A stretch of DNA of 64,000 nt from Cyanidioschyzon merolae. Its lineage: Eukaryota. Below, piece after piece: positions 9,219 to 42,112 of the stretch (position 1 is the first letter of the stretch; every line of letters starts with the position of its first letter). Both the position numbers and the translations under genes were made by a program. Below the pieces are notes generated by a model that saw nothing but the letters and a program-made list of their open reading frames with translations, was not told where the DNA came from and did not search any database. The stretch lies in NCBI GenBank assembly GCA_000091205.1, contig AP006501.2, one strand, 5' to 3'.

Positions 9219-11023
9219 GAACACCCTTATTGCTCGCAGACTGTGCACCGAAATCGTTCCCAATATGTGTCCAGAGGGCGCTCCAGCCTTTATAGTTTGC
9301 CATCCGCACCGAACAAATAGCGTAATCCAGGCGAAAATCCAATGCTCGAGCTCCTGGTCACAGATACTCTGCACCGCAAGTCGTCAGCATTCCAGCACAA
9401 TGCCTATTCTGAGTACGAAACAAGTTCGTCGAAACTTCGCCGACACAGAGCCACTGGGGCGCTCCGGAAGCACGAAGCATCTCCGCTTCTTGATTGAAAC
9501 GTTGAAGTCGCAGTGGGGAAAGCGCCAGCTCGTATCGTTGCTAGTGGAAGTACCCCATGGGCATTCGCTTACCTTCGAATTCATCGCCATCTGACGTTCA
9601 GTCTCTTACAATACAGCACCGCATGCGTCCGTCTTCGCCTCATGCCCTTCGTCTCTGGATGTTAAAGCGTTCACCCGAGCTCATTCTTCGTGCACACCGA
9701 CTTGAATGCATCCGCTGGAATCGTGCAGAATCGATTCCTGAACTCGTTCTACGCTCTAGCCAAAGGAGCGAGAGCGCGGTCTGCGCGCGTTACAGCACGT
9801 CCGGCTCCTTGGGGTACTACGAAACCGCTCGGATGCCCGGTCATTTTATGTTCCGACGAATCCAGCAAGTCAGCGAATGCCCACTTTTGATCATTGTACA
9901 CCCGAAACCGTTGGTGACCTCAGCGCGAGCGCATGCATTCCTGCGAAAAGTCGTCCACATGAGGGATTAGGCGCTCCTATTTGCTCTGAATGAAGCTTTG
10001 GACGCACTCTGTCAGCTCGATACGATGATCAGCGCGTTGAAAAGGGTCCAGGTGCCGTCGTTCCACTTGCGGATGCGCCTGCTTGCGTTCCTGCTCCCGA
10101 CCCGAGATACGAAAAGGCCCGCGCAATCTTCAGCAGCTTCATCTGGTTTCTGCTTAGTTTTTTTGGCTCCATTCTCTTGAGTCAGGGGCACGACGGCGGT
10201 TACGATGCTCATAGACGTGGAATCTTCGCTCACCACGTGGTGCTCCGCTTCGTCTACGCTGAGCAGCGAGGCAGAGTCTCGGTGCTCGACTCTGGCCTGG
10301 GATGGCACAAAGTGCTTACAGATCGATATCATCGAATAGACGCCTGAGGAGGCTAGCATGCTCGCTTACGTGGCAGGAGTCTGTCTTTCTCTGGAAGGCT
10401 CTGTTCAGCGGAGCCTAGTCGCGCAATTGGCAGTTCAGGAAGACGTCTCCTTGCAACCGTCCACTGGAGACGTGACTTGGGTCCGTCCGAGGCCAACAAG
10501 ACGACGACGAGCTTGGACAAGCGGAAGCGACACAGACGCTCTCTCTCGCTCGCCGTGACTTGTCATCCGATATCGCCACCACACTGAGCTCTTTCTGCCA
10601 CCACTAGCGCTTTATTCGCTTCCATCGACGCACCAAGAATCCCTTAGATTCGTCCCAGTTATCCTTGGGTGGCAACACGAGGCTGCAACAACCAGGTGGA
10701 GCGCCCCGCCAAGCGCTCGAGGTCGATCTGCATTTCGCTGTTGAGGTTTGTTTGATCATGGATGACACTTGCGCTTCAGATGCTGCGATCGCCGACGTAG
10801 TGAAGTGATATCTCACGGTATTCTGGGGAGCTTGGGTGCAAATCTCGGATCCTGCGATCAGTTCGTAGTGCATCTTCTGTCCAGAGCACCATCTGTGTGA
10901 TCACAACAGGGTCTGACGGAAAGATTCCTGTGAAATGTGGACAACTGGTAGCGCTGCGTACGCAACTGTTATGAACATCTGCTTGACGAGGAGCGTTAAG
11001 GCGAAGAAAGCCAGACGAGACGT
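9219..11023. repeat. Inverted repeat copy A (~1.8 kb), >99% identical to the reverse complement of 40309-42112
   Basis: ORFs 9557..9970(+), 10012..10359(-) and 10604..10873(-) reappear with identical translations on the opposite strand at 41362..41775(-), 40973..41320(+) and 40459..40728(+). Boundaries were mapped by hand: the left end at 9219 (gaacaccc.. is the reverse complement of ..gggtgttc at 42105-42112) and the right end at ~11023. Confidence 0.9.
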
Positions 11024-12056
11024 CTTTGACAAGAAAGGTATGCGATTCGGAATGGCTTGTAACAAATTACTTTTTGGAGAATGCTATCTTTCCTTGTGAT
11101 TTTGCAGGGAGGCATTCACAGTTGCTCCATACTGATATTTTTCGCTCCGACAGGTTTTCGTCCCTATCTCTGCTTATCCTTTATCGGATCCATCTTTTTG
11201 TTCATTGTCCGGTGGGTTCTTCTCCTTTTCCTCCACAGGCGAGACGGCTGTGATACAGTTGCTGTTCTCTAAAGGTTTTTTCCTCATGATAGAAACACAT
11301 TGGGTACAAGACGGAAGAGAAATTTCTGTCTTCTGAATGTATGTATGCATGCATGATTCTATATGTCCCTTTCTGTCACGTCCATCACCCGAACGCGCGA
11401 GGACGGATTCCCACACTTCCGCTCCAGCTCGGGTCCGAGCGGAGAAGCACCGTGGCGGCTCAAGGATGGTGAAGGTACAGAACAGTTGTCGAATAATCAT
11501 ATCAAGAATGCGAACCAGTCTTCTGTTGATCTATGAGTGAAAAGTTCACAGTTGACAACAGAGAGGCAGCCTTCGACTGGACTGCATCCAGTGGGAATGT
11601 GATGACACGAAGAGCCGCTGGACGCAAGTCTCAGCCGTATATTTCCTCGACCAATGTTGAGAGAACGAAAATGACCTTTTCTTGGAGCAGGACTGAAGAA
11701 TGTGTGATAGACAATGCACGAAGTCTTTCGTTTTAGGATGAGGTGTTGAACGGCCGTGTCTGTAAAGCGCTTATAATGCGGCCACAATGTAATCTGCGTT
11801 AGGGCACTTGTCGTCATTCTCGCTCGTCTTTCATCTATGATCAGCGGTAATACCCTTTCTGAGCACCCATCGTCAGCTCTGCCATTTGTGTCGAATACAG
11901 TCCTATCGATTGAGATGAGAAACCGTCACTTTTGCAGTACGCGTCTGCTTTCCAGGACGAAATCAGTGATGAGTCTCTCAGCGCCCTTTAGTCAACGGTA
12001 GAAACGTGCTGTTCTCTTCGTCTATCCGCGTCTCTCTATCCTTGTTTTCGTCAACA

Positions 12057-12067
12057 GGGGGGGGGGG
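12057..12067. repeat. Homopolymer G run (11-13 nt)
   Basis: gggggggggggg read directly at 12057-12067 in an AT-richer, ORF-poor stretch. Confidence 0.9.
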
Positions 12068-12643
12068 AGAACTTCACATGGGGTGCTTCTATTTTAGTAG
12101 TTCTCAACGAACATATGGAATAGAATGGAATATCGGGGAGGCCGTCGTGCAGAGAGAATCTGACAGGTTCTGCGTGGGTGCAAGAGCATCAGCATACGGA
12201 CGGCGGAAAGCGTGGATCATCCACTTGCTTATCTAAGACTAACAAAATTATTGAAGTAGGGCAGTTTATTACAAGATAGCTGGTACCGCATAAAACCTTT
12301 CCCCAACCTTTCCTCAATCTGCATGACGTCTTCCAGATGTTGAACACCTGCGAGCAAACAAACACACACGAAAGCGTTATGGGCGTGCAGGTGTTGCGGG
12401 CTGTACTGCTCTGGGTATAGCTTGAGCAGCTCTGGTCCAATAGACCGTGAAAGGTCCATGTATCCTCTTTATTAGGGCCTGAATGGCCACCAGCAAGGCG
12501 TTTCTTTCAAGTGCCCCGCTCCACAGTGCGATGGTGCGAAGCGCGCGCGCCCCATTGGCCAAACGGCCAACTTCTTGGCCCTCATGAGCCCCGAGCACGT
12601 GTAACCAGTAGAGACTGCGTTTTCAACGTGAAACTACAAGTAT

Positions 12644-14851
12644 TTGTCGGTAGAGCGATCGTTGTCGTACTTGTTGATCAGCGCCCGTCTTCTGGAAGCG
12701 AGCCCGCTCGTGCTCATGAGTACCGACCTGGAAGAGCTGTCAGCAGCGTGGCAACATCGGCTCCTAGAAGAGTTCACTGTTGTCGACGCTGTTTTCAGTC
12801 AAGTCGTTGTTTTGGTCCAGGCGGGTGTCCCGGTTGGCTCGCCCGTGTTTCGCCGCCTCATCGGTCACATACTAACGACGCTAGACGAAAATGTCGCACG
12901 AAGCCGTGCTTTGCTTTGGAGAGAGGCTGTTTTGAGTGCCCGTCTGAGAGAGCGTGCAAGGAAACCTGTTGTGAGAAGAGAACGCCTGCGACAGCAGTTG
13001 ATATCGGAAGCTTTCAAGAGAGCTCCGAGCACCGATCACGGCCAGCAGCACAGTGTCTCGCTAGAGTCGTCCTTAAAGTTTGGTTTGAGCCTGCTAGGCT
13101 GGCCAGCGGCTGCGGACCACGAAGACGAAGAGAACCGCAAACTGAGCGAACGCTGTACATACGAACGGAGTACCTACGGAACGCGTTTTTTCGTCTCGCT
13201 CCTTCGGGCGCTGCTCAATTTGGGTTTGGGAATAGAGCGTCTCAGTGAAAATACGGATGCCCTCTCCTTTTATTTAGCAGATGTGCCGGTTGAGCCGACG
13301 GAGCTCGGCTGGTCGCCGCCATCGACCTCTTCACCAGAACGATCACCGATGCTTTCGATATCACCACGACGATTCAATGACGGACATACCGCTGCTCAGT
13401 TGGCAGAGCGCAGCCCCGTTAAGGCTAGAAATGTTTGTAATGGGGCGGTACGGAGTTGCAAGACTCGCTCTGAAAATACAGAGCACCCAGCTATCTTAGG
13501 CGCGAATCGGCTAACGAAAGAGCCTATGGATCCGTTGCAGTGGATCGATATTTGTGCGAGTGGTTCCTCCTGGAAGCAGCTCATAGAGCAGGAGATGGTG
13601 GTGGTAGAACATATACCACGGAACGCATCCATATTTCTGGAATGCTTGCTTGGTCTCATCGCGAGAGGTGGCGAACACCAAGAGACATCAGATGCCCATG
13701 CTTCGGAAACAGAAGCTTCCAAGCAATGCGCTAGCTTGTCGAGAACGCTGACCGGCGTAACGTCGTTACAGATTCTTTTCGCTGAATCTGTCCGCATGGA
13801 GTGTTCGCGGAAAATGCGCTCTGGTTTCTTCCAAGCGCTCCCATCACTCCTTCTGCGCGCTTTGGAGCGCAACACCGTCTCGCCTGTTGTGGTGGATTAT
13901 GAGCTGGAGCCGCAGGCCGTTCCCCTGGTAGCGCATCATGGCGAAGAAGAAGCGCCTAGCAATGGCGCTGAGCAGCTGGACGGGTACGAGAAACGACAAT
14001 CATATCAGGTCGCTGCGCACTCGCTCTCCAAGCAACTGGACGATGAGCTTAGCGGCTTGTCGGCGCTTCTCGCTGGGGTCCTGGACCTCTGCCTGGCGTT
14101 TACGGATACGCTGGCGACTCAGCACTTGCGCCTTTCTGGGAAGAAAGGTCTGCGCACCTCGTTCTTTGACGAATCAGCGGCGCTCTTGATGGAGCGTGGG
14201 CACAGCTTTGAAAGTGTCGCGGAGCGTTTCCAGGACGACGTTTCCGCTGCGAAAGACTTCCCAGAAAGCGCCCCAGTGGTGCTCGTACCGCGTTCAGCAT
14301 TCGCGGTGCTGATTTTGTATCCGGGGAGCGCCTCGCTGAAACTGCACATTTGTGATCGTATCTTGGATACGTTTTTTGCAGTGGGTACTGCGAAGATGAC
14401 CGCAGACTCTTGGCGTTTCAAAGAGCCCTCGATCGAGAAACTCATCTGGCATTCAATGCGAATTCGACCGAGGGATCACGAGGGCCCCATTCGGAACTCA
14501 GACTTTGGAATGACAGCGACCATCATCGCCGATGCGGGCTCGTCGACACAGGCGGAGACGTCACACACCGACACACTGTGCGTTGGTATCGTTCCAGATT
14601 CACCAATTTCGTCAGCCCCGAAACTGTTGGAAGAGTACCTGCTGAGCATGATTGGTCTGCTCAACGGTTATTTGGGAAGCGTTCTTTCCGAACGGGAGGC
14701 GAATAGCGCTTCGCCAAACATCCGCAACGCTTTTCTGGAGACATCCTCTTCTTTGGCAGCCTTTCTAGAAGGGTTAATATTTAATCCAATTTATGCATCC
14801 TGGAGATGGCATATCACTGATTTACTTGAGAGTCTGGAGCGCGAACTGTGA
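12644..14851 (+). CDS. Hypothetical protein (735-aa ORF; likely start at a downstream Met, e.g. MSTDLEEL.. near ~12716); no recognisable domain
   Basis: It is a long uninterrupted ORF in a genome context where neighbouring genes are single-exon. Codon usage is GC3-rich like the other genes here. I recognised no motif. Confidence 0.45.
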   Translation: MSVERSLSYLLISARLLEASPLVLMSTDLEELSAAWQHRLLEEFTVVDAVFSQVVVLVQAGVPVGSPVFRRLIGHILTTLDENVARSRALLWREAVLSARLRERARKPVVRRERLRQQLISEAFKRAPSTDHGQQHSVSLESSLKFGLSLLGWPAAADHEDEENRKLSERCTYERSTYGTRFFVSLLRALLNLGLGIERLSENTDALSFYLADVPVEPTELGWSPPSTSSPERSPMLSISPRRFNDGHTAAQLAERSPVKARNVCNGAVRSCKTRSENTEHPAILGANRLTKEPMDPLQWIDICASGSSWKQLIEQEMVVVEHIPRNASIFLECLLGLIARGGEHQETSDAHASETEASKQCASLSRTLTGVTSLQILFAESVRMECSRKMRSGFFQALPSLLLRALERNTVSPVVVDYELEPQAVPLVAHHGEEEAPSNGAEQLDGYEKRQSYQVAAHSLSKQLDDELSGLSALLAGVLDLCLAFTDTLATQHLRLSGKKGLRTSFFDESAALLMERGHSFESVAERFQDDVSAAKDFPESAPVVLVPRSAFAVLILYPGSASLKLHICDRILDTFFAVGTAKMTADSWRFKEPSIEKLIWHSMRIRPRDHEGPIRNSDFGMTATIIADAGSSTQAETSHTDTLCVGIVPDSPISSAPKLLEEYLLSMIGLLNGYLGSVLSEREANSASPNIRNAFLETSSSLAAFLEGLIFNPIYASWRWHITDLLESLEREL

Positions 14852-15679
14852 GTGTGCTATCGATGTGGATGGCATTTTCGGAGAATACGTAATTCGCCGT
14901 GTTCGATGACGAATTACCGGGAGTCGATCCTCGTTTTGCGATCGCTCCACAGTGATGCTGGTGAGCGACACAGTAGCTCCCGGCAATATTATTGATTCGG
15001 GTCGAGCGCCAGTCTTTTCAGAAATGTACAGGGTGCTATCCTGATGTTGCCAAAATCTGCTGCTGCTAGATTTATATACATGTGCTTTGGCACGGAGCGA
15101 TTTTCGCATCGAATTGCGGATTTCAGCCTATGAAGACGGTTCAGCTCGCTTGTGCCAACTCGACACAAATTTGGTCACTGCTGTGGGGCATACTTTTACG
15201 GCATTTGTGTAAAGGGCGAGGTCTCGCCACAATAGCTCTGCTGGGATCACAGTCAATGCTTTGATGCTAAACGGGCACCAGCGTCAGCACGGGCTGGAAA
15301 CGTGTATACCCTGGTACGCGGAACACAAGCGCACTGGGCGGGCTTCTCGCAAGTGCGAGTTTTCGCAGTCGCGGCCCTAGGTATCGAGATTTAGTTCGCC
15401 TTTGGAACCCGCCTCAGTTTGGCTGCGAGCCTTCGCCACCAATCCATGCTAGAAAGTCGGCGCTGCGGAGCCTGACAATACTTGCAGCTGCAACTCTGGC
15501 CGAATCTGCGCCGCACGAGGACGCTAGAAAGTTCGTTGATTGGGCGACGCAGGCAGCAGACTCTTCCAGATGCAACTGTCGTGTGCCCGGAAACCTGCTA
15601 AAATGTTGTGGAAGCTCTGCTCGGGCGTTTTCAAGAAATATTTCCATGCTTGGTGCATCTCCAACCGCGACATCGCATC

Positions 15680-17630: not shown

Positions 17631-18358
17631 GTAGAAAGTCGACGCCTCGCCTAGATCAGCATTTGCTGCAAAACTTTCGTTCTTGATGCGCGGCAGGTTG
17701 TTGCTGCTTTCATCCTGCTGTGCCTAGGCAACTCAACGGCTAAAGTATGTTGAACTATACGCGTTTATGTTTTTGTTGCTCGCGAGCTGGTTTTGCGAAC
17801 AAACCTGGTTTTTTCAGAATAGTTGAAGGATCGTTTGGAAGTAACACTCGTTCGTATCCATTCGAAGCAGATTCCGGTGCAGGGTGCCCACATGAAACAA
17901 TTCGTTCGCTTCGCATATTCCTGCTTCAGATGGAGTTCTGCCACGCCTCGACACAGAGGCGCGTTTCGAGTTCGGCAGAACTGGTCTGCGTTGCGACAGT
18001 ACACCCTGGAGTCGCAACTGGCATCGGAGGCATCTCGTAGGCGGTTGTTTTTCTGCCCGCGAAGTGAACGCTTCTGCTCCAAAGTCTTGGGTACCCAGAT
18101 TTCGACTGGAGTGTGAGCACTTCTCAGCGAGAGCGACATTTGGCCCCTGGTTCTCCATGAACTCGAGTAATCGTAGCTGATAGACATGTAAGTGCGGCGC
18201 TGGCTGTCTGGCGAGCGGAAAGCTGATGTATAGAGCGCGAGCCGTCTCTGTCAGTTAGCACTGACTTGGCATCTCTGCGTTCAGCCGATTCTCTTCTTCA
18301 ACTTTCACGAATGTCAGACTTAAATAGAATGATTCCGCACAGGGCACTTCAGCGCTTA

Positions 18359-19633
18359 CACTAAAGTTTGGGTGTCCTCCTGCAATGACCTGCACCAGCC
18401 ATTGCGGTTATTTCTGCGACTGCCTCATTGCCCTCCCTCCTGTCTCTATAGCTCCGTTGCCAGCGGTCGAGGAATCCTGATCGCAGCGCCAAAGCTCCTA
18501 TTTCGAGGCTTCCGACTGTTGTCGATGCATTTTATAGGCGGACGGAGGTGGCGTTCTGCGCTTCGCTTGCCAATTTCATTTTCTTCGTGTATAGCCTCTG
18601 TGCGCCGTTCGTGGCGGTGACTCATGAGGCCGGCATCGTGTCCACAGCTGTCCGCGACACTTGCACCTTCGAGGACTTGCCTGCAGCGCGCGAACGCTTG
18701 TTTCATCGCTCGGCACATGCCCGATACTAGTTCAAGAGGTTCCCATAAATGCACGCTGTCGTTTCCGCACACAGTTTCTACTCTACGATCACCGGCCTCG
18801 TCGGGGCGATCCCGTCAGCGGCTGCGTCGTTCGATGCACACGCAGACGCACATTGTCTCGCACGATGAAGAGATTTGTGGAACGCGACGTAGTTCACGTT
18901 GTAACAGGTGCTCAGATGAAAACCTGGGCAGGAGAACAACTCGAAAACCTGCGACCTGTCTCTGCTCCCTTCGTGCACATTGATGACGCACTGCCCACCG
19001 AGCGCAATCGCTGTCACGACTGACGTCAGAGTCCACAGCGCTGTTCCATGCAAGACGGTGGCGACGGACGCCTCCGAGAGCACATCCCGTGAGAGGAATC
19101 ACGGTGGCGTCGACTGCCTTCTCATCGACGGCGACGAAGAGAGGGCCATTTGCTTTTCGAAGCGAATCGATGATTTGACGTGACAATTGCAGTGAACTTT
19201 CGGCATGAACTTTTTGTGAACAGGTCGTCAACGGCGGACGTCGAGTGATTCTCCACGCCAATGCCGCAGCGCGCATCGCTGCACCACAAGGTGGTATGGT
19301 ACAGTCGATCGAAACCTCTAACCATGCGCGATGTGAATATGCTTTACATGAGAAAATGCGAAGCGCCGATGTTGATGCGTACAAGTTGGATGATGATATC
19401 GGGTAAGGCACGAATCCGTGCTCGAGGGCGTCGCGAATGATGTCAATGACGATGACGTGACGAATACGAGCGGCAAAGCATCGAAAGAGCTACTCCGAGG
19501 ACACGATCCAGAATTCTGAAACTCTATATGAGTATGTAGTGCTTTATTGCTTCACTGTGAACGCCGAGGCTGTAAAGCGAAAGCGTCCGGACGGAATGAG
19601 AGAGAAAGGCGGGAACAGGGCAAACATTTCAGT
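18359..19633. repeat. Direct repeat copy 2 (pairs with 1-1272)
   Basis: The same ORF translations recur, as listed for copy 1. Differences cluster around copy-relative position ~240-290. Confidence 0.9.
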
Positions 19634-19903
19634 ATTCCATTTTACTCTGCCTCATTTTTGGGCCAGCGGGTTCACGCCCTGTCTCTAGACAGCGCCAAAA
19701 CCGACGTAATGAACGGATGCAATCGCCATGGAAGGAGCGTTGCCGAGCCTCCTAGTTTCACGATACTGCTCCCGGGCAGCGAGGACGCGCGAAAGGCGCA
19801 CTCGAGACGCAGCACGCACGTCAACGGTGCTCAGGTAGACGGGGGTGCAACCACCACGAACATAGCTTCATTAAACCCCACAAGTCCCCATTCCTTATCA
19901 CAA

Positions 19904-27135: not shown

Positions 27136-27949
27136 ATGGTGGTCGACGCAGCGTAGATATCAGCGCGCTCCACAAATGCATATATCCGCCTCAGTTTCCA
27201 TGCATCTAAATCTAAAAACGGCATGTTTATCAGCAGCCTCGAAGCGATCGCCGGCTGCATGGCATGGGACGTGGATCGTCCTGAACCTCAGCGCTTTCCG
27301 TCATAGAGTATTTGCGCAGCAACGGGAGCGTACGCACGGCAGCTGTCCATGGAGCTCAGAACCGGGAGCATCCTTGCAGAAGCATATATGCGATGCTCGT
27401 ACCTTGATCTTGACGCAGAGCAGTTCACAGCATACGGGATACAACTTATCGCCATGCACAAGATTTTTCACGTTTTACACTGAACCTTGGTGGATGCGAA
27501 GCCACTTTTTCGGGCAGGTGAGACATCAGCGATGATGCGAAAGGCAACAAAGTCGTGTGCCGGCCACAGATCTGTTGTTCTGAACCTGAAACCATAGAAC
27601 GGATGGCATGGATTTGGATATGGCAAAAATTGACAGGCAGCGATTTTCTTTAGTCGTCCAAAGAGCAGGCATAGCGTGAGGATGTCGACCGGGCACACGC
27701 AGCAACGAATGGTTTCCTCAGTCCACGTCCGCGCATCTATTGTAATAAACCGTGTTGTGATCAGATCATATGTGTTGTCTGCGATTTAGGCCAGCTGCCG
27801 CGAAGAACATTGCATGTTATCAACTGGCGGTAAAGCGACTTGTAGAATATCACGACCTCCGTTTGCCAAGATGTTGATAGATGGAGGGCATCCCCGTGCC
27901 TATGGCCATGCGCACACTCTCAACACGACCAACCGAACTCCTTCAGTGA

Positions 27950-28232
27950 TTGGTGCTACGAGCCGTAAAGGATTTACGCAGTGAACATCATTTCCCGACG
28001 TGCTTGAGTGCAATGTCGAGTTACACGCGGTGCATACTGCTGCTATTGCTGCTACGAGCCGTAATCGATTTACGCAGTGAACATCATTTTCCGACGTGCT
28101 TGAGTGCAATGTCGAGTTACATGCGGTGCATACTGCTGCTATTGCTGCTACGAGCCGTAATGGATTTGCGCAGTGAACATCATTTTCCGACGTGCTTCAG
28201 TGCAATGTCGAGTTACACGCTGTGACAACAGC
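27950..28232. repeat. 96-bp tandem repeat, ~2.9 copies, followed by a short (CAG/GAG)n tract
   Basis: The unit gctacgagccgtaa[a/t][g/c]gatttacgcagtgaacatcatttcccgacgtgcttgagtgcaatgtcgagttaca[c/t]gcggtgcatactgctgctattgct recurs at 27955, 28051 and 28147. It lies in the 3' intergenic region between convergent genes. Confidence 0.9.
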
Positions 28233-28308
28233 AGGAGCAGGAGGAGCAGCAGCAGCAGCACTAGTTCCTACGGCTACTGTTCCAGACTGCAGATTTTCGC
28301 TGCAAGTC

Positions 28309-30279: not shown

Positions 30280-30864
30280 GTTCTGGGACCGTTGACCTTC
30301 GAAGCAACATACACGCCCAAGATGAACACTTTGCGCCCTACAAACAGTAGCGAGGAGCTAATTCCGGTGCAAAGCAGCCTGCGCTATCTTTGGAACGCTT
30401 CAACGGAAATAAGGGCACGCGTTCAATGCACTTGTGAGCGCACCCATTCAGGGGCCGGTGGAAGCTCACCACATACGCAAGTGACCACGATATATGCTTG
30501 AGAAAAGGCCACGGGTGATCACAAAACGCAACCTATGTGCAGTTTGTCTGGAAGCGCATATTCCCCTACAAACTGCTGAAGGGACAGCGCGGACAGAGCG
30601 TGTTTACGAGTACAAGAGTAAGCGCGGTCCCTATCAGAAAACACAACAGAGTGTTGTCTGTGAAAGCCTCAATCACTACTCTTCTAGCGCATACAACGCC
30701 CAGGTTGACACCTGCCGCAACGACTCAGAAAGACAGGGGTTATGTTCCTTGAGAGCGACCGAGTGTCCAGTTGCACTGCGTCAAACGCCCGCCCAGGGTC
30801 ACCGTTCTCCGCTCGGGACACCGAGCACCACGCCTCAGCACTGAAACCCACTCGGAAAGTTGCA

Positions 30865-31441
30865 CTAGGGCGTCTCGGGTTCTGTGGGTAGTGTATCCCA
30901 CTGCACCAAAGCGTCGCTATTCGATGCTGTGGCAGTGACGCTTTCCCGTTGCAGCGCTGTTTTCCACTGGAAAAAGTTGCAGCGGCCGCCACGTTCAATC
31001 GGTCCCGCTGGTCTGCGGCAAACATAGAATTGGCGTCCCCGATGTGGACCCTGTTTCACTGTACGAAGAACAGCAGGTTCCTGGTGGCCGTGGCACCGCG
31101 GAGTACCCCGTCGTGGGCTGTCTGCACTCGGTACTGCAAGTAAAGCCCGCCACGCTTTCGTATCTGTCTTGCGCACCGACGGACGACTCGACATCTCATC
31201 AGCTTGAAGCGGGTCACTGAGCTTTCGCTGAGCTGAGACAACCAGAGGCGTCTCCCGCGTAGTTGTCGCCTGGGGCTGCGTCCGCCTTATGTATCGCTCC
31301 AGGGTGAGCTGCTGTGCGCTCGCTGGTGCGGGGTCGGCAGCTTCTTTGGACCCAGCCGAGGCCTCATGGAGTTTGGAAAGCGTGGCGTTCTTAGTCCTTG
31401 CACTTCCAATCGTCGGTAACGAGGCTGTGTCGGTGGGAGTC

Positions 31442-31478
<37 letters not shown>

Positions 31479-33723
31479 ACTCAGATGCGTGAGGCGCTTC
31501 GCAAGGCTTGCTACCGCAAGGCAGACCATGTGCCGCGGCACTCCAAGCTGCCTGAACTGGGGGCGAACACGCACGCCGTCCTTCACGTTCCAGATGGAGC
31601 CGATCCATATGGTGAGGCACTGATACCGGCAGTTCTTTGCATGCGGCGAGAGCGTTCGTGCTCCGCTTGAGATGCGGTGACCGCATCGATACATCCAACT
31701 GGCCTTGTTCGGATGATTCTTGCCCCTGACCCGTTGTAAGTAGTTCCGCGATTATCGCTCGCGTCGTCCTTGTCGACAAGCGAGAGTTCGTTGCTTCGGA
31801 AGCGCTGAGCTCGGGCTTCTGATGCTGCTTCCAGAAACTGTAAATATCTGAAGATATTTGGGGCTGAGCGTCCTGCGAAGCTGCTGCTGCGGCTGCTGCT
31901 GTATGAGCATCTGTGATGATGCTCTGTGGTGAGTTCGCGGCGAGCCCCTGGATCGCCTTTTGCGAAACTTGCCGCTCTATTGCTTGCACGAGGGAGACAC
32001 TTGTACGATGGGGCTTCGTCCCGTGATCGCTCAGGCTGTTATCGGAGTCTGCAACACTGCATAAGGCTTCCTGTGTTTCGTTTCTGAGTTGCGCTTCTGT
32101 GGATTGTGTACTGGATTCCTCTGCGACGTTGCATACGCTTTCGCTCTCTTCGTTTCGTAGATGCCCTTGTTGCATACGATTCACGAGCCCATGACGTTGA
32201 CGCTTGCCCGATCCGGTTGCGGAACGTATAGAGTTCTGCCAGATGTGCCGCAAGGAAGTTTGTTTTTCATGAAAATGATAAGAGTACCGAAGAGGGACAC
32301 ATGGATTAGACACTGTCCATGGCCACTTTTCCGTATCGATCACGGGGGCGAGTTCCGCGACACACGGACAATGGTCAGATCCCATCACGTTAGGCAACAA
32401 GTCACATGCCGTGCATCGAAGGTAAGGGCCCGCATTGCAGCTCAGAAGAATGTAGTCTATCCTGGTGCCGTAATTCGTGAGACGCGCTTGTGTCTGTGTA
32501 TTCCAACAACTGTATGCATCTCGACGATTGGGCCATTTTTCGCGGAACAAGTCACGGAAAAGGTCATCCGAAAGCATCCTGTGCAACCAAACCCGTGATG
32601 GATGTGTTTCGAAGACGATACGATCATTCGGTGCCGACACCTTCTCCGTTGATACAGCGCTAGCATCCCTTGACGTCACGCCTGCCGTATGCGAAGCTGA
32701 TCCTGGTAACAGCGTTCCAAGCAGGGCGCTTTGTTGTTCGGACTCGGCTCCGTCTGTGAAGCGGGGTGCATGTGCCGGGTGCCCAGTGAGGATTCCGGCT
32801 GCCGCCTTTCTCAAAGAAGGCGACTCCAGCAGCTTAGGATACAATTTAGCTGCCTCGCGCTCAGCTTCCTGCGGGTTGCAATGGTCAATGCGCTCATGGG
32901 CAGTATTCAAATCACCGAGAATGACTACTATTCGGTTCTGGGTCCGGACCAAGTGGAGACAACGATCCTCCAAACATGTTAGGAATCTTTGCTTGTAGAA
33001 GAGACGTTCTTCGTTAGCGGCATTTGGTACATAAACATGTACGAGAATAAGGCCGCATACATCTAGGACAAGCGCTCTTCCTTCCTCGTCGAGTTGGCGA
33101 TGCTCTTCGCGCTCCGCAGTACCTAGCGCTTCCCCAGATGAGGACCATTCCTCGGGATAGTCTCCGACGTGTAGCTCTGGTAGTGCTCGCCAAGTTGGCA
33201 ACTGTTGTTCGCGTCGCATTGTCGATATCTGGCCAGACCGGAGGCGCTCGAGAAGCTCGCGAGCGCACGGTGGTGCTGAAGGCCACTCCAAACAGCGAGC
33301 AGGGAGCTCGCCTGTGAGACCCTCCTCAGCTCGCCAAACCTCCCAAGTACAACCATCAAACTGCGACGCTCTCCCCGAGCAACGAACGTAAACGGCAACA
33401 CCAGCGTACCCGACTGTTTTGCCCTGAGTTTTCGACGCACAGAACGAGAAGTAGCCCTCGAACCAGAACGGGTACGAGGGGTGCTCCAGCCTGGCCAGAT
33501 GATCAGGAAAGTCTTCCGATCTTGTTTTCAATTCCTGTAAGCAGATAACGTCTGGTGGCGCTCCGCTGGGCGCCAGACGAAGCTCACGGACGAAGCACTC
33601 GAAGAGCACCTGGTCGTCCGAGAGCTGCTCACGTCGCCAACCATGCTCGCGTCGTTTCCGTGCTATGAAAGCTCGGAGCCCGTTGACGTTCCAGGTTACG
33701 AGCCTCAACGGTAACCTTTTCAT
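30865..33723 (-). CDS. APN2: AP endonuclease 2 (APN2/APEX2-like; ExoIII/EEP nuclease domain plus a C-terminal GRF zinc finger); start taken at MKRLPLRLVTWNVNG within the longer ORF ending at 33831
   Basis: The N-terminus is LRLVTWNVNGLRAF (ExoIII family). Nuclease-domain motifs include ICLQE, VLGDLN and GSDHCP. The C-terminal GRF-type finger is GRQFYVCRRPAGPIERGGRCNFFQW. The ORF also encodes a poly-Ala tract from a (GCA)n repeat. Confidence 0.8.
31444..31478. repeat. (GCA)n/(TGC)n trinucleotide microsatellite encoding poly-Ala within the APN2 CDS
   Basis: gcagcagcagcagcagcagcagcagcagcagcagca read directly. The minus-strand ORF shows AAAAAAAAAAA. Confidence 0.9.
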
Positions 33724-36424
33724 CAGCGAGAAGCTGAGTGCCCCTAGCGAGCATCCCTTAAGCCACCCAGGGTTTTCACGAAAGCCCCACAGTACGTATG
33801 CGGAGCAAACGTGCAACCCCGACACTGGCAACGCAATACGCAGTGCACTTTGAGCCGGTTTCTACTCGGGGCAGAACATGGTGATAAACTAGTTTTTATG
33901 AGCACAAGCCCTAGACATCAGGGATTAAATGAGATACTGCAAGTTGAAAAGGTTTGCTTTAGAGACTCATCGACCGAAGCGTCACTGTCTCCGTGTTCCC
34001 AAAGCAAGCTGCTGCATGGGGATCCTCTGCTTTTGCTGCGTTGCAGAAACTCCAAATTCGTATCCCCCAGATGCGGCGTTCGACTGTATAACAAACGCTT
34101 GCAACACCGGAGGCTCGCGGACGTGCTGCACCACAACGTGCAACCTGTCTCTGTGTCGTCCAGAGCGCGTTGTTGTAACCACGTGGTGCGATACCGAGAT
34201 CCTCTTACAGAGAGCGGCTTGCCCAGAGTGACCTATCTCATTCAGAGTATTGAAAAACAGCGGTCCGAAGTCTCTGCTGCACATCTGTGGTAGACTCTTC
34301 ACGAACGAGCAATTTATAAATTCCTCTGGGTAGAACGCCAGACTCGGCTCGTGCAGGTACCTTATCCGGTGTCGAACATTCGAGCATGAGCTTGGGAGTC
34401 CCGGAGCATTTCGCTCTCGGCTTGGGGGAGCATGAAAGTTAGGCTACTAGCCGATATCAGAGATGAGCGCAGCTGGCGAGGTTGGAATATTGTCGCTCGC
34501 AGCAGGCATACTGAAGCGTGCAATCGAGTTCGGCTCATTCTGGTCAGTTTTTAATTTGTGGATGACGATTAAGTGTCGATGCTGAACGCTTCCGTGTGAT
34601 ACAGCGCTCAGGTCTATGACCGCAAGCACCAAATCATCGGCGCTCCAGCGCTAAAGCTAGTCTTGTTTCGAAACCTGCTCTCAGTGATGGAGATCGCATG
34701 CCTACGGGGACTTTTCGGTATCGGCAAGTCAAGGGCGCCACCTCTAATCGTGCCGTGTAAAATATGGAATACCAGACTGCTCGCTTCCCTCCTGCCTTTC
34801 GAGTTTTCCGAAATTTTTTTCGATATGCAGCCCCTATATTCAAAGTGCAACAGCAAGGGCTTCGGAATGCATACATAGGATTTGGATTCTCGGAGGTTCT
34901 TTTTCAGAGCGGCCGCTTTCACGGTTCACCTCTGGAATTGGTTACGTCATTTGAATCAGGATGATGCGCATTGCTCTGGAACAAGGGATCGTACAGCATC
35001 CGATGCCAGCAACCAATTCAAAAGTACATGCCTCAAAGCTTCTCCTTTGCTTATTCGTAAGATGATAAAATTGCGCATTATTCAAGTATTCGATGTTTCT
35101 TTTCCAAGGCAAATCGTGGGCGTCGCCATTCGCACGGCAGTACTGATAAGGAAAACAACGCGACATCGTCCATAGACGACTTTTTTAACCAGCTCATGCC
35201 AAACGTTCACTGAACTTGCCACGTCATACAATCGATTCTTTTCAAATGCCGAATCCTGCTCTCTTTGAGACCATCCACGAAATTGCATTCGACATCTGCA
35301 TGACTGCACGTATGGGGTAATCTCTGAAAGACTCCCGTCTCGTCCGGTTGCATTGAAACGAGTCGCGGACTTGGGATTCACCCATTACTGTAATCGCTTC
35401 GGATAGGGTATGCGTCACCGCTTTCCGCGAATAGAGCTTGAATGGATTCGAAGTTCTCAACTTGCTCTCTAACATGGATTCCCCTACCAGTACTTTTTTC
35501 AACATGAACAAAACAGCGTTCTATAAATTCGTTCTGAAATGGAACAGCTCGCACCTGCATGTACTGTAGAGAGCATGCCCACCGACGGCATCGGCCAGAA
35601 AACGCTCTTGAGTCCAGAGTATGGTACCGGGCACGGGAAAGTACCAGTACATAGGGGGAAGCCCTCTGTACCCGTCATGTGCGTGTTCCGAAGCATGAGG
35701 CAAGCGTCTGCGCATCATGCAGTGGTCCTCGGAAGAAAAAGAGGTATGGTAGACATATGCGCACGCCTAGTCATGGTCAGGCATCACTGGTGCGAAGCGC
35801 GCGCCGACATTGTACACAAAGAAGATGAATATAGGAAAAGAAGCAGAGATCGTATCTTGCGCCTGCGCATGGACTGCTTACCTACAGGTGAAAAGAGCGT
35901 CATCAATACTAAGACGCCGTGATCAATATCGTTTGACCGTTGACTACATAGCTCGAGGGGAGTAAGCGACCGCCGTATGTAAAGCCTGAGATATGCACCT
36001 GGCGAAGGACGCAGTGCCAATGAACACCAGCAAAGCTGATGTTCATGACACTGGGAAGAGACTTGTACTTTACTACGCGCGCCCTAGTTGAATGATCCGT
36101 TCGTTTTAATCCACACAAGGATGTCTACTGAAATGTCGTTTACAACTCATGCAGGCTGCTCTATACAGAGAGCCCCAAACGACATGAAGCCAAGACCCCA
36201 TTCTCGAACGCTTATCGCTGCAATGCTCATCGGAACTACCACCTGCGGGAAGCAATTCGATTCTTGCAATTGTGACGAATGGCCTCGCAATGAAATGCAG
36301 AAACATTCGCGTCTGTACTTGCGCTTGCAAGGACGAAGTGTCTCGTGTCCTATGCAGCAGCTGTTGCATATGCACGTGAACAGCAAAAGGAACAACGTTC
36401 TTCAACCATGTTCGGTACACGTAT

Positions 36425-36788
36425 CTACTCACGCGCAGACACCTTGCAGTCGTGTTCGGGCCGGCCTACCGCAAACGGATTCAACTTCTCCTTGTACTCT
36501 TTGAGCAGGAGAGGCTGCCCCATAAAGTTCATTCGCGTCAGCTGCGGGGGTGTCCTCTTCAACACCACACATCTGCTGATTTTGGTGTCGGCGCTCAAGT
36601 CACGGTTCACGAACTCCATGCGTTTCTTGCCTCTGGTGGAATTCAGCAATGCGAGGATTCCTCGAACTCGCGGCCTCAATGCCACTATATTTTCGTTGCC
36701 GCACCGTCTGGTGAACATCATTTCTCGCCCACTTCCTCATTTCGTCTTCTTCTTCGTCACTTGCTCGTCTTCGCGCAATGGTCGGCAA
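36425..36788 (-). pseudogene. Second TnpB/Fanzor-like remnant, homologous to 15980-16140 (a short fragment with no adjacent Tc1-like part)
   Basis: The minus-strand frames read ..YSGIEAASSRNPRIAEFHQRQETHG and ..RPRVRGILALLNSTRGKKRMEFVNRDLSADTKISRCVVL. These parallel locus 1 (..ANGIEVAISKTPRIAKFHQKRQAHG and ..RSRFRRLPALQSSTRSDKRMDFVNRDFNNAINIIRYAVL) with the same frame relationship. Synonymous differences (ttt/ttc, cga/cgt) preserve FVNRD. Confidence 0.4.
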
Positions 36789-37526
36789 TATAAGGATTTC
36801 TCGTCTTTCTTGTTCCGGCAGTATGCAATGACGGGCCTCCGGGATCCCCAGCTTTCATGTTCATACCTTTTCTCTTAGATTATTTATTTTTTCAAATGAT
36901 AGCGCTTGGGATACATTTTCAATACCTGCGAAAACGCAAATGATTTTACGCTCCTGGGCCTGGAGTATCATTGAGATAGGAGCCTATAAGAAGCAGTCGG
37001 GGTTGAAGCACTGATGCGAGACACACGCCTGTGGCTTTTTTAATGAACAGGCACGCAGAGGCTATGCAGAAATATCATTGCTCACATGAGATCCCCTGCG
37101 AATCCTATGCTTCCTAACCAAGTTCCGAAATAGGAAGATCACAAGAAACAGAAAAACGATCAGGAGCTGTGCAGGACGCAGAGATTTGCTGGGTACTCGC
37201 GTTCTCGAGACGCTCTACATAGATATGGATTTCCAGCAATGCCAAGTCACAATCGGAAGCTAAATCAAGAGCCATGAACTCTCAATCGATATCATGGGTA
37301 GGATCTCGCCATCCAAAGCGACCGCTCTAGCGAGCAATCACCATCTGAGGTCGTACCAAGCGCCAAAAACATCTCGCTAGCTACCGTAAGGAAGCGCTCG
37401 CCATCACCAAGAGGTCGCCCCGGCGAGCCGCAACCCTCCAGTGCAGCACCGGGGGTATCCACGACGGCTTTTGTCATCGACGCTGCGTTCGGTGTCGAAT
37501 CCTGCCTCAAACAATGCTCCACCACA

Positions 37527-38813
37527 CTACGTGGGATTTCCGACGACTCGTGTGGCACTTGTGGCTCGTGCCACATCCAGTGTCGACTCCGGCCCCAAGT
37601 GACGCACCAGAACACCAGTTGGAATCTCTGACGACTCGTGGATCCGTTGCCAACGCCACGAGAGGCGACTCGAGCGCAACTCGCGTTGGCATAGAGGAGC
37701 GCGCGCCCCTGGGCGAGCTTCCCCTGTCGGTTGCTGCGCACTACCAGGTGCTTCAGCAACGTGCTGTGCCATGACATTGTTGTCCTTACCATATGCAGCA
37801 GTATCGCTGGCGACATAGTCATTATCACCAGCGCCTGGTGCATCATGTGCGGCAAGATTCGCTCGCGCTTCTGCTCCCGCATCAGCGTCATGGCCATCAT
37901 TGGCTTCAGCCCAGGAACTAGTGCGGGCAATTGTGGGCTCCCGGCTGAACGCTGGCGTGAAGCTCAGATGCTTGCGCTCAGATTGCCGCTCTAGTTCATC
38001 CACATCTCGCAAGACTGACAGATTTTCCACGCTCGTTTCGAGCAAAGCATCAGCATGTTCATCCTCAGATACGACGATTCCTTGTTCGTCTGCACTTGCA
38101 TTCAAAGTTGTGCTCGAACTCGTCGATGCACGCAGGTTGGCTTCGGGAGTACTCCAAGTGAACGAACCGCTGGCACCAAGTTGACGGCCCCATCGGAGAC
38201 GCTCCAGTGCCCAGTGACGGGCCCTCTGTTGATCACTGTGTTCCGCTAGGAACTCTAGCCACTCCTCGTAGAGGCGTAAGGACTGACGTTCTGCCCTTCG
38301 TCGCCTCAGTGCCTCTTTGGCCGCAACTTGGCGCCACTCTAGTTCCCGGGTGATACCGCTGGGGCTCACAGGTGCACTTACCGGTCGTATGTGGGTATCC
38401 GAAGAAGGATTCCGCCAACTGATATGGAGATCAGGTGTCTCTGCGCTCCGTTCTCGAGGCAGCGATTCCGTTTCAGACGGCGCTGTGGTGTCGCGAGTGT
38501 CGTGCTCGGTGCTTTCTGTGTCATCCAAGAGTGCGAAACCTGTTTGGCTGTGTACTCGGCCGCCCTGTGGCGAGCTCTCCTCAGGAGACTGGGTCGGTAT
38601 CGGCTGCTTGGCAAGCACCGGGGCCTGATCGCCCGCAATCCTTGAGGCTCTCAGCTGCAACGCAGGCTTCTTCTGTCTCTCAGTGAGCGTCCCAAACTGA
38701 ATGTAGTTCCAGAGTCTTTGTTCTAGCACCGCCCGTTGTATTCGTTCGCGTATGAACAGCAACAGCAGGCACGCAATAAACCCTAGTTGTATGACTGTCC
38801 AGTGGGAAAGCAT
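37527..38813 (-). CDS. Hypothetical protein with an N-terminal hydrophobic (TM/signal-anchor) segment; otherwise low-complexity
   Basis: 428-aa ORF. The N-terminus is TVIQLGFIACLLLLFI. I recognised no conserved domain. An overlapping ORF 37292..37930 in another frame hints at a possible intron or frame break. Confidence 0.35.
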   Translation of the reverse strand: MLSHWTVIQLGFIACLLLLFIRERIQRAVLEQRLWNYIQFGTLTERQKKPALQLRASRIAGDQAPVLAKQPIPTQSPEESSPQGGRVHSQTGFALLDDTESTEHDTRDTTAPSETESLPRERSAETPDLHISWRNPSSDTHIRPVSAPVSPSGITRELEWRQVAAKEALRRRRAERQSLRLYEEWLEFLAEHSDQQRARHWALERLRWGRQLGASGSFTWSTPEANLRASTSSSTTLNASADEQGIVVSEDEHADALLETSVENLSVLRDVDELERQSERKHLSFTPAFSREPTIARTSSWAEANDGHDADAGAEARANLAAHDAPGAGDNDYVASDTAAYGKDNNVMAQHVAEAPGSAQQPTGEARPGARAPLCQRELRSSRLSWRWQRIHESSEIPTGVLVRHLGPESTLDVARATSATRVVGNPT

Positions 38814-40308
38814 GAGCGGCCAGCCTCGGAACTCCAGTGTGCGTCTTCGTACGAAAGACCCGCTTCAGGGCGCATCGACCAGAGCTTTGACAGGACGCTC
38901 GATGTTGTTCACGAGCGAGCAGCTCTGCGGAGCCCGAAACTACTGCAGCGTACCCGAGAACCAGCTGTAAACCTCTGCGAGTCCACAACACCGAAGACAA
39001 GTCAACGTTTCGCCAGACAGGACACTCTAATAGGGCCGGATACACCCGTTAAACAGGACGAGAGAAATACGCCTGGGAACAACGCGCTTTGTATCGTGAA
39101 CGCGAGAAACGAAGGCAAGACAAGCGCAAACGTCAACACTGACCAAGGCGTTCGTACCACCTGGGGAGGTTCGATGCCAGGGGCTTGAATGGCGGCAATT
39201 ATTTTGAAGTCTTTCAGGAGAAATTAGATGCAACATGACACCGTAAGATACTGATAGAAGCATTGCCCTTGGTTTGATCAACGAGCAAACTTCACCGTGG
39301 ATGCAGGCGAACCGCACCGCCAGGCAGAAGTTCCTCGCAGACTGATGTACTCAGTTCTAAACAGAGCGCAGAGTTCTGGGACACCTGTACGAGAACGGTC
39401 TTTTTGTTTCCTTTTGTTTCTCTCGGGGGTATTGAACAGAAGCAAAGTATCCAGTAGAGCGGAGGAAGATCACAAAAAGTCTTTGTAATGCAAGTGCGAG
39501 CTCGCGAGCAAAGGACCTTACTTGTAGAAGTAAGCTATTCTCAGGTAAGCAGCTGGATGAACCACCCTTCTGGAAGTCCTTATTTTGAACGTCGTGCATC
39601 GGAGAGCAGAACCTAGAAAACGCAGTCTAAACGATCGTCTTCTTGTTAAACTGATACAGTCCATGAATGCTCAAATAAATACAATCAAATAAGTCGCAGA
39701 ATGGTAAGGTTCCGAACCGTCGAGACAAGCACCGCTGAAGAGATACGCATGGACAAGGGAAAAAGCAACCCTCTATGAGCGAGCATCGCCCGTTGAACAA
39801 CGAACTCTGGATTTCGCGCGGAAGCACGAAAGCTCCGGACTAGTGAAACTATTGCTCGTTTTACTCGATGAGACTTCATTCGGGAAATATGGAGGATGCG
39901 AATACGCATTTTCGAGGAAGAAAAACTGCTATTCATCAAATAAGAGGCAAGCGAGCTTTCCAACGAGATCAGTCCGAGCTGTGATTCAGTCGTTTGGTCG
40001 AAGGCGTTTTGAAAAATGCACGGGATCGATAAGCGTCACATGCTTCGTCGGAACACTCGTCGTGGCTTCTCCTCTCCACATTCTTCTGTCCTGCGCTCAT
40101 ACAGCGTCGATTTCAATCACTAAAAAACGCTTCAGGAGTATGGTACTGAATTTTGCATTGCACTGCTCTTTGTCTCAGTGTACGGTCACCATCCCAGTCT
40201 ATTAGCAGGAGTGTGCTCTGTTGTCAAACGTTTTTATGTCGGACACACAGATCAGCAGAAGAGGCATTCGCATCCTTGATACCCAAAGTTGCAGAAAGTA
40301 AATAGGAA

Positions 40309-42112
40309 ACGTCTCGTCTGGCTTTCTTCGCCTTAACGCTCCTCGTCAAGCAGATGTTCATAACAGTTGCGTACGCAGCGCTACCAGTTGTCCACATTTC
40401 ACAGGAATCTTTCCGTCAGACCCTGTTGTGATCACACAGATGGTGCTCTGGACAGAAGATGCACTACGAACTGATCGCAGGATCCGAGATTTGCACCCAA
40501 GCTCCCCAGAATACCGTGAGATATCACTTCACTACGTCGGCGATCGCAGCATCTGAAGCGCAAGTGTCATCCATGATCAAACAAACCTCAACAGCGAAAT
40601 GCAGATCGACCTCGAGCGCTTGGCGGGGCGCTCCACCTGGTTGTTGCAGCCTCGTGTTGCCACCCAAGGATAACTGGGACGAATCTAAGGGATTCTTGGT
40701 GCGTCGATGGAAGCGAATAAAGCGCTAGTGGTGGCAGAAAGAGCTCAGTGTGGTGGCGATATCGGATGACAAGTCACGGCGAGCGAGAGAGAGCGTCTGT
40801 GTCGCTTCCGCTTGTCCAAGCTCGTCGTCGTCTTGTTGGCCTCGGACGGACCCAAGTCACGTCTCCAGTGGACGGTTGCAAGGAGACGTCTTCCTGAACT
40901 GCCAATTGCGCGACTAGGCTCCGCTGAACAGAGCCTTCCAGAGAAAGACAGACTCCTGCCACGTAAGCGAGCATGCTAGCCTCCTCAGGCGTCTATTCGA
41001 TGATATCGATCTGTAAGCACTTTGTGCCATCCCAGGCCAGAGTCGAGCACCGAGACTCTGCCTCGCTGCTCAGCGTAGACGAAGCGGAGCACCACGTGGT
41101 GAGCGAAGATTCCACGTCTATGAGCATCGTAACCGCCGTCGTGCCCCTGACTCAAGAGAATGGAGCCAAAAAAACTAAGCAGAAACCAGATGAAGCTGCT
41201 GAAGATTGCGCGGGCCTTTTCGTATCTCGGGTCGGGAGCAGGAACGCAAGCAGGCGCATCCGCAAGTGGAACGACGGCACCTGGACCCTTTTCAACGCGC
41301 TGATCATCGTATCGAGCTGACAGAGTGCGTCCAAAGCTTCATTCAGAGCAAATAGGAGCGCCTAATCCCTCATGTGGACGACTTTTCGCAGGAATGCATG
41401 CGCTCGCGCTGAGGTCACCAACGGTTTCGGGTGTACAATGATCAAAAGTGGGCATTCGCTGACTTGCTGGATTCGTCGGAACATAAAATGACCGGGCATC
41501 CGAGCGGTTTCGTAGTACCCCAAGGAGCCGGACGTGCTGTAACGCGCGCAGACCGCGCTCTCGCTCCTTTGGCTAGAGCGTAGAACGAGTTCAGGAATCG
41601 ATTCTGCACGATTCCAGCGGATGCATTCAAGTCGGTGTGCACGAAGAATGAGCTCGGGTGAACGCTTTAACATCCAGAGACGAAGGGCATGAGGCGAAGA
41701 CGGACGCATGCGGTGCTGTATTGTAAGAGACTGAACGTCAGATGGCGATGAATTCGAAGGTAAGCGAATGCCCATGGGGTACTTCCACTAGCAACGATAC
41801 GAGCTGGCGCTTTCCCCACTGCGACTTCAACGTTTCAATCAAGAAGCGGAGATGCTTCGTGCTTCCGGAGCGCCCCAGTGGCTCTGTGTCGGCGAAGTTT
41901 CGACGAACTTGTTTCGTACTCAGAATAGGCATTGTGCTGGAATGCTGACGACTTGCGGTGCAGAGTATCTGTGACCAGGAGCTCGAGCATTGGATTTTCG
42001 CCTGGATTACGCTATTTGTTCGGTGCGGACGGCAAACTATAAAGGCTGGAGCGCCCTCTGGACACATATTGGGAACGATTTCGGTGCACAGTCTGCGAGC
42101 AATAAGGGTGTT
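40309..42112. repeat. Inverted repeat copy B (pairs with 9219-11023, opposite orientation)
   Basis: See copy A. The only differences I could see in the ORF track are two amino-acid changes (H/R, W/R) across ~1.8 kb. Confidence 0.9.

Follow-up and report, generated by a model that had tools for sequence, protein, structure and literature searches.

Introduction

Pairs of long, nearly identical inverted repeats on one chromosome can invert the DNA between them by homologous recombination, as is known from human int22h/F8 and 17q21.31 and from the Ty/delta elements of yeast. Here we describe such a pair in the unicellular red alga Cyanidioschyzon merolae. The DNA analysed, referred to as the window, is a stretch of 64,000 nucleotides (nt) from contig AP006501.2 (assembly GCA_000091205.1), and the pair consists of two copies of a 1.8-kb repeat, R (arm 1) and R' (arm 2), which lie on either side of a 29.3-kb segment of genes. 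The original prediction, made from the letters of the window, held that the pair could serve as a substrate for inversion of the segment by homologous recombination. That idea has gained support from four environmental contigs in which the segment is flipped, as opposed to window-type contigs, the window itself and two outgroup genomes. We consider it reasonably probable that in certain natural strains the segment has been inverted through recombination of the two arms and that the locus carries an inversion polymorphism.

Cyanidioschyzon-type algae serve as models of eukaryotic nuclear genomes at their simplest. They are genetically tractable and have a sexual cycle, and nuclear gene targeting by homologous recombination is efficient in C. 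merolae with arms of ~0.5-1.5 kb. In a comparison of telomere-to-telomere (T2T) assemblies, one inversion and one reciprocal translocation set C. merolae 10D apart from MS1 Ha3, a Yellowstone strain, and these rearrangements were shown for chromosomes 3 and 19; the divergence between strains is 0.71%, and the two haplotypes of MS1 differ by 0.57% (PMC13353863). Lemonade Creek in Yellowstone is dominated by a "C. merolae 10D-like" alga and has been sampled by JGI with Illumina metagenomes and with poly-A and RiboMinus metatranscriptomes (PMC11662350). C. merolae is also host to an interspersed element of 253 copies and an average length of 3.2 kb, which is transcribed and carries a truncated WSV486-like open reading frame (ORF) (Nozaki et al. 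2007, PMC1955436).

Results

Two arms that differ at one nucleotide

The two arms are 99.945% identical over 1805 nt in opposite orientation, as determined by repeat search, base-by-base comparison and self-BLAST. They are therefore two long, nearly identical inverted copies on one chromosome, as expected of inverted low-copy repeats. The sole mismatch is at position 9302, where arm 1 has A and the corresponding position of arm 2 has G. All four arm ends are sharp: in the base-by-base comparison the flanks beyond them are ~75% mismatched, which is the level of unrelated DNA. R has a G+C content of 0.542, compared with 0.466 and 0.463 for the inner flanks. Searches of the masked window with blastn and tblastx gave no significant match to R elsewhere, and R had no match in prokaryotic genomes or viral contigs.

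Most of what had been predicted about the pair held when computed. The AT-rich inner ends were borne out, the distance of ~29 kb between the copies comes to 29,285 nt and the identity of ">99.8%" was conservative. The coordinates were right for arm 1 (9219-11023) and for the start of arm 2 (40309); the end of arm 2, given as 42112, was one base short and lies at 42113. The "about two amino-acid-level differences" between the copies overstated what is a single nucleotide mismatch.

In what follows the flanks are named A (left of arm 1), B (inner left), C (inner right) and D (right of arm 2), so that the order in the window is A-R-B...C-R'-D. The coordinates of the arms, contigs and other features are collected in Table 1.

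Flipped and window-type arrangements among environmental contigs

Related contigs were found with an exact 26-mer of R against JGI metagenome contigs and with exact-protein look-ups of small ORFs in or across R. These environmental contigs are 99.3-100% identical to the window, a divergence in the range of the published strain and haplotype differences (0.71% and 0.57%). Every environmental copy of R has A or D on its outside and B or C on its inside; no third context was seen, and only two near-identical copies of R were found. Hundreds of such copies, which by the original prediction would have made R an ordinary dispersed repeat, did not appear among the environmental contigs.

Four DNA contigs span the whole of R in the flipped arrangement, three as D-R-B (L005, L010 and L008) and one as C-R-A (L012), and they are base-for-base collinear. 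The flipped topology was found in every DNA contig that crosses R (4/4), with both complementary junction types present. Three contigs from cDNA (complementary DNA) or cDNA-series samples span R in the window arrangement and are likewise base-collinear. The window junctions A/R, R/B, C/R' and R'/D were each reproduced in independent contigs. The window arrangement certainly exists in the populations from which the window-type cDNA contigs come, and two transcripts with their own poly(A) sites explain these contigs.

The D-R-B contigs have flank alleles in common on both sides of R. In the D flank, all three carry 42870A and both of the two that reach position 44590 carry 44590A; in the B flank they share 11712T/11713G. 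None of these alleles occurs in any other contig that covers the position concerned. In the A flank, the C-R-A contig has a haplotype private to itself, from 7624T to 8034C. Because these flank haplotypes are private to the flipped contigs, they argue for distinct lineages rather than random chimeras, and the sequences thus point to a flipped order that is carried by distinct lineages.

Within the arms, alleles at the inner end track the inner flank, with 10727C in all environmental arms joined to C and 10727T in all those joined to B. A real crossover inside R would predict this match; a chimera would show the same. Ten arm positions are polymorphic among the environmental copies of R (9315, 9603, 9632, 9647, 9770, 10496, 10727, 10806, 10946 and 10950). 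Some arm alleles, e.g., 9770A, are linked to A in some strains and to D in others, which is expected if the arms exchange sequence. The two arms of the window differ at one site, compared with two to four differences between orthologous arms of the window and the environmental strains. This low divergence agrees with a recent duplication, with or without gene conversion, the counts being too small for a test; it is plausible that gene conversion helps to keep the arms alike.

Several observations weigh against an inversion in natural strains. All contigs that cross R were assembled from short reads, and an exact repeat of 1.8 kb exceeds the read and insert lengths, so that any of them could be chimeric. 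Also, all four DNA contigs are flipped as opposed to none of the three cDNA or cDNA-series contigs (exact test, p about 0.03). Differences between samples or strains are the simplest explanation for this split between data type and arrangement, and an unrecognised assembly bias could also explain it. No sample was shown to hold both complementary flipped junctions. The published inversion between 10D and MS1 could not be shown to be this segment, and the gene neighbourhoods of CMJ093C and CMS232C do not match the window. Lastly, the evidence for gene conversion, at one difference compared with two to four, is statistically empty.

The principal rival explanation takes the pair as real but inert. 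All natural genomes would be of the window type, and the four flipped contigs would be chimeric paths through a collapsed repeat. R is longer than Illumina reads and inserts, and the core of the repeat was found once per flipped-contig sample, as happens when a collapsed repeat is placed in a single contig. Chimeric assembly also fits with the cDNA and cDNA-series contigs being all of the window type, explained by two simple transcripts, and with the window order of the two outgroups. It fits poorly with the DNA crossings, since four of four, from four samples and different assemblers, have the same flipped topology and include both complementary junctions, and the flipped contigs have private flank haplotypes in common on both sides. 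Furthermore, another thirteen contigs come to an end at a boundary of R or just within it, from which it follows that these assemblers usually break at the two-copy R rather than guess. The T2T comparison does report an inversion between a Yellowstone strain and 10D (PMC13353863), with the proviso on its identity given above. On balance we regard the chimeric origin as somewhat unlikely, and we infer that the flipped contigs represent real chromosomes and that the crossover took place by homologous recombination within R.

Ancestral gene order and the origin of the pair

The gene order in Cyanidiococcus yangmingshanensis (JANCYV010000015.1; L029, L030) matches the window. It runs through two exchangers, a 422-aa protein, an APE2-like protein, a Myb protein, a kinase and an R3H protein, and continues with a TAF12-like histone-fold protein, 131-aa and 730-aa proteins, MRP-L47, ESF1 and Sec61-beta. 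A closer relative, Ga0438750_00006 (L027, L038), has the window order over the parts that it covers. The 730-aa and 718-aa genes of these relatives correspond to window positions 12644-14851 by DNA matches. Since both outgroup genomes have the gene order of the window, the window orientation is the ancestral one.

Both sites at which R lies are larger in the window than in the relatives. From the stop codon of the exchanger to the next gene there are 623 and 846 nt in the relatives vs. 3.8 kb in the window, and MRP-L47 and the 730-aa gene are 1.8 and 2.3 kb apart vs. 5.2 kb. No R-like sequence was found at either orthologous site in either of the two relatives, and R is therefore lineage-specific at both sites.

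R itself does not look like a gene. No Pfam domain was found in its six frames, including transposase, reverse transcriptase, integrase and gag domains. By a codon-usage log-odds score trained on the genes of the window, the frames of R range from -0.11 to -0.16, compared with +0.12 for true genes and -0.16 for off-frames. A hidden or frameshifted gene was rejected, since the six-frame Pfam scan was empty and no frame is coding by codon usage. The Rfam scan of the arms gave nothing relevant at gathering or E-value thresholds, and no tRNA was found; rRNA or another structured RNA in the arms was excluded by these scans. The absence of a recognisable gene from the copies, as originally predicted, holds insofar as R has no known domain; both arms are transcribed nonetheless (see below).

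The longest ORF in an arm, of 137 aa, has relatives. A HMMER search of 1.84 billion representative proteins returned, besides the cluster of the ORF itself, 21 clusters at 31-44% identity (E 1e-15 to 4e-4), all of them nameless gene calls on contigs from JGI, Logan and ENA that reach 103 kb in length. Their alignment shows real homology across ~110 residues, with an odd composition rich in Arg, Ser and Cys, and the family has no Pfam domain. Within the window, tblastn with the family found the two arms only (about 9390-10266 in arm 1). With its neutral codon score, the ORF is probably not a real protein. In our reading, what is conserved is a family of repeated DNA, and the ORF is a translation of it that may be off-frame or antisense. 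R would then be a member of an old, diverged and dispersed family, and its only member known as a near-identical pair. It is because the 137-aa frame has ~20 diverged relatives in metagenomes that we take R to be a recently duplicated member of an old dispersed family.

The original prediction had offered a non-autonomous insertion pair as an alternative. Part of this stands, in that R belongs to a dispersed family; the rest does not, given that R has no transposon ends and only two near-identical copies. R starts with GAACACCC and ends with GAGACGT, and its reverse complement starts with ACGTCTC and ends with GGGTGTTC. No terminal inverted repeats were found in R, no target-site duplication or microhomology at the arm flanks in either the window or the flipped pairing of flanks, and no poly(A) tail and no Helitron-type or LTR-type (long terminal repeat) termini on R.

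The known classes of element were considered in turn. A class II transposon or miniature inverted-repeat transposable element was ruled out by the lack of terminal inverted repeats, target-site duplications and a transposase domain in six frames. A Helitron was ruled out since the ends of R are unlike 5'-TC...CTRR-3' with a 3' hairpin, inserted between A and T. An LTR, solo-LTR or non-LTR retroposon was ruled out by the lack of TG...CA ends, a duplication, an A-rich tail and reverse transcriptase, integrase or gag domains. A site-specific recombinase system was ruled out because Pfam scans of the larger ORFs in and around the segment found no tyrosine or serine recombinase. Finally, an organelle-type large inverted repeat was ruled out, as the window has no rRNA or tRNA and its genes are nuclear and eukaryotic.

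The arms could, all the same, be independent recent insertions of a family element that is still mobile, with their pairing a coincidence of local hopping. The ~20 or more diverged members of the R family would fit this, as would the transcribed interspersed element of which C. merolae has 253 copies (Nozaki et al. 2007, PMC1955436), the enlargement of both intergenic sites relative to outgroups that have no R there and the arm ends, which are identical to the base. We consider it unlikely. The terminal structures and enzymes of mobile elements were not found in R, no metagenome contig holds a third near-identical copy and the other family members, just 31-44% identical in the common frame, give no sign of a young active lineage.

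We therefore return to inversion by recombination, for which we propose the following course of events. R, transcribed but non-coding and 1.8 kb long, would belong to an old dispersed family specific to its lineage. One copy was recently duplicated in inverted orientation 29 kb away, with blunt junctions that bear no mark of a transposon. Being 1805 nt long and 99.9% identical, the arms could then undergo homologous recombination with each other and so invert the 29.3-kb segment with neither gain nor loss of sequence. The window has the ancestral orientation, and some natural strains would be flipped.

Transcription through both arms

The window-type contigs L019 and L020 begin with T7 and with a SMART oligo followed by T27, respectively, and so are polyadenylated cDNA; L035 we take to be cDNA from its sample series only. 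On the minus strand, L019 and L020 lead from within the exchanger ORF across the 540-nt D spacer and the whole of R' to 468 nt of flank C. A further contig, L036, corresponds to the window from 10409 down to 8618, followed by 27 non-templated A, and has 1191 nt inside arm 1. Taken together, L035 and L036 point to an RNA from the minus strand that begins in B, reads through arm 1 and is polyadenylated ~600 nt into A. Both arms are thus transcribed and covered by cDNA contigs and, because the arms are inverted, the RNA that crosses one arm is complementary to that across the other for up to 1.8 kb. A further minus-strand poly(A) site, at ~36858, was seen in the environmental cDNA contig L011.

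Complementary polyadenylated RNAs raise the possibility that R is kept for an RNA function, e.g., as a long 3' untranslated region of the exchanger that pairs with complementary RNA from the other arm. We find this very doubtful. R is absent from both sites in two related species and matches no Rfam family, and read-through and divergent transcription of intergenic DNA are common enough that no function is necessary. C. merolae is also not known to have machinery for RNA interference.

With the segment flipped, transcription of the exchanger would continue into B and meet the B-derived transcript head-on; coding sequence is uninterrupted in either arrangement. A regulatory role for transcription through the arms is speculative. 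In its strongest form, the pair would be a reversible switch in which orientation tunes expression of the exchanger, held as a balanced polymorphism in acidic hot-spring populations. A flip would change the DNA downstream of the exchanger, including a 2.8-kb 3' tail and the poly(A) site, and would turn two separate complementary transcripts into convergent transcription over one arm. We give such a switch scant credence.

That the window itself is misassembled, with one arm or its orientation artefactual, has nothing specific in its favour beyond the generic risk for near-identical repeats and is hardly credible: all four junctions were reproduced in independent contigs, the orientation agrees with two outgroup genomes and with polyadenylated transcripts, and arm 2 has a private base at the position matching 9302. 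The possibility of a misassembly raised in the original prediction can be set aside on these grounds.

Genes and other repeats of the window

The long ORFs of the window are eukaryotic nuclear genes, and no rRNA, tRNA or Rfam family was found in it. By Pfam, the segment between the arms encodes a 735-aa protein, TAF12, a RING/R3H protein, a kinase, a Myb protein, an APE2-like nuclease with a GRF zinc finger and a 428-aa protein; "housekeeping", as these enclosed genes had been called, is roughly right for what are eukaryotic nuclear genes. The window also encodes ESF1, mitochondrial ribosomal protein L47, two tandem giant Na+/H+ exchangers and a ZIP transporter. The best named relative of ESF1 is in C. 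yangmingshanensis at 48% identity, and a 100% identical protein was found only in JGI and Logan environmental assemblies, in line with a nuclear genome of the C. merolae type. Exact-protein look-ups gave no match for the 428-aa protein or for a 57-aa ORF in flank B. The tandem exchangers are paralogous giants of 2064 and 2356 aa (the second at 51138-58208 on the minus strand), each with an N-terminal Na+/H+ exchanger domain, and the pair is kept in Cyanidiococcus and in the closer relative.

A second recent duplication is a direct repeat, 5-1292 and 18363-19650, of at least 1288 nt and 99.07% identity. Its left end is the start of the window, so it may be longer, and several environmental contigs end within it. 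One copy lies outside the invertible segment, on the flank A side, and the other inside; the flipped arrangement would make the copies mutually inverted. Each copy of the direct repeat contains a copy of another dispersed family, and these two are near-identical. The family, which is unrelated to R, centres on a 198-aa ORF with no Pfam match. At least three further copies in the window are diverged, at 33-48% protein identity and ~65% DNA identity.

Simple repeats were also seen. A G12 homopolymer in flank B (12057-12068) varies in length, with 6 nt fewer in two of the environmental contigs; of the D-R-B contigs, one ends inside it and another degrades just past it. There are also two tandem arrays, one at 27949-28236 (96 nt x 3, 86-95% identity) that overlaps the Myb gene region on its 3' side, the other at 49312-49485 (87 nt x 2) between the two exchanger genes.

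Table 1. Positions in the window of the repeat arms and associated features, and the environmental contigs that cross or stop at R
Feature	Position	Strand	Size	Remarks
Arm 1 (R)	9219-11023		1805 nt	Between flank A (MRP-L47/ESF1 side) and flank B (735-aa gene side)
Spacer between arms	11024-40308		29,285 nt	Segment inverted in some environmental contigs
Arm 2 (R')	40309-42113			Reverse complement of arm 1; between flank C (428-aa gene side) and flank D (Na+/H+ exchanger side)
137-aa ORF in R	9557-9970	+	137 aa	Mirrored at 41362-41775 on the minus strand; longest ORF in an arm
Poly(A) site, transcript through R'	39836-39846	-		L019 and L020 start at about 39841-39846
Poly(A) site, transcript across arm 1/flank A boundary	8613-8623	-		L036
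Na+/H+ exchanger gene	42655-48849	-	2064 aa	Pfam
198-aa ORF family copy	457-1053	-
198-aa ORF family copy	18815-19411	-
198-aa ORF family copy	2689-3151	-
198-aa ORF family copy	35195-35386	+
198-aa ORF family copy	50010-50156	+
198-aa family DNA match	34777-35303 with 49592-50118
198-aa family DNA match	705-1083 with 49774-50154
Flipped contig Ga0080006_1160985			26.1 kb	D-R-B
Flipped contig ENA ERZ27249350 k141_210822			11.2 kb	D-R-B
Flipped contig JGI20133J14441_1009916			3.4 kb	D-R-B
Flipped contig Ga0504781_000312 (L012)	30994-42113, then 11023 down to 1166		22.3 kb	C-R-A
Window-type contig Ga0506600_000422 (L019)	39841-45642			C-R'-D
Window-type contig Ga0556046_000349 (L020)	39846-45310			C-R'-D
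Window-type contig Ga0556045_01999 (L035)	11384 down to 9042			B-R-A
Boundary-stopping contigs L004, L007, L017				A + R
Boundary-stopping contig L018				D + R
Boundary-stopping contig L006			1805 nt	R alone, exactly
Boundary-stopping contigs L024, L025, L026				B + ~127 nt of R
Boundary-stopping contig L031				C + 127 nt of R
Boundary-stopping contigs L033, L034, L037 and one near-duplicate of L034				A + 86-143 nt of R

Discussion

If true, a small repeat-mediated inversion at this locus would be a marker of strain structure in Yellowstone populations and a local suppressor of meiotic recombination in heterozygotes. It would also be a natural test of how efficient ectopic homologous recombination is in a repeat-poor genome. 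The locus flags where short-read assemblies and metagenome-assembled genomes of these algae break or mis-join.

R may belong to the 253-copy interspersed element of C. merolae. Like that element, R is lineage-specific, apparently dispersed, transcribed and without an intact gene, and it has ~20 or more diverged relatives in metagenomes where the alga occurs. The two differ in size, 1.8 kb as opposed to an average of 3.2 kb, and in number, since we found ~22 clusters and not hundreds. The 198-aa ORF family of the window is an equally good candidate for the element.

Among systems that invert DNA, the site-specific invertible elements, such as FLP/FRT of the yeast 2-micron plasmid and the bacterial invertons, likewise have inverted repeats around a segment seen in two orientations. 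At the R locus, in contrast, there is no nearby recombinase gene, and in place of short target sites there are 1.8-kb arms made up of ordinary sequence. The flip-flop isomerisation of plastid genomes is closer in that homologous recombination between inverted repeats inverts the intervening sequence. It differs in that the R locus is nuclear, its arms carry no rRNA or genes and nothing indicates equimolar isomers in one cell line.

The closest likeness is to the inversions between inverted low-copy repeats at human int22h/F8 and 17q21.31 and between Ty/delta elements in yeast. There, as here, long and near-identical copies lie in inverted orientation. The breakpoints at R would likewise lie inside the copies, with nothing gained or lost at the junctions, and both orientations apparently occur among natural genomes. 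The arms of R also have alleles in common, as would be expected from exchange. What differs is the much smaller scale, with 1.8-kb arms and a 29-kb spacer, the host, a haploid-phase unicellular red alga with an exceptionally repeat-poor genome, and the evidence for both orientations, which at the R locus comes from short-read contigs only. The mechanism would be the well-known one of non-allelic homologous recombination between inverted low-copy repeats, and the locus reveals no new one.

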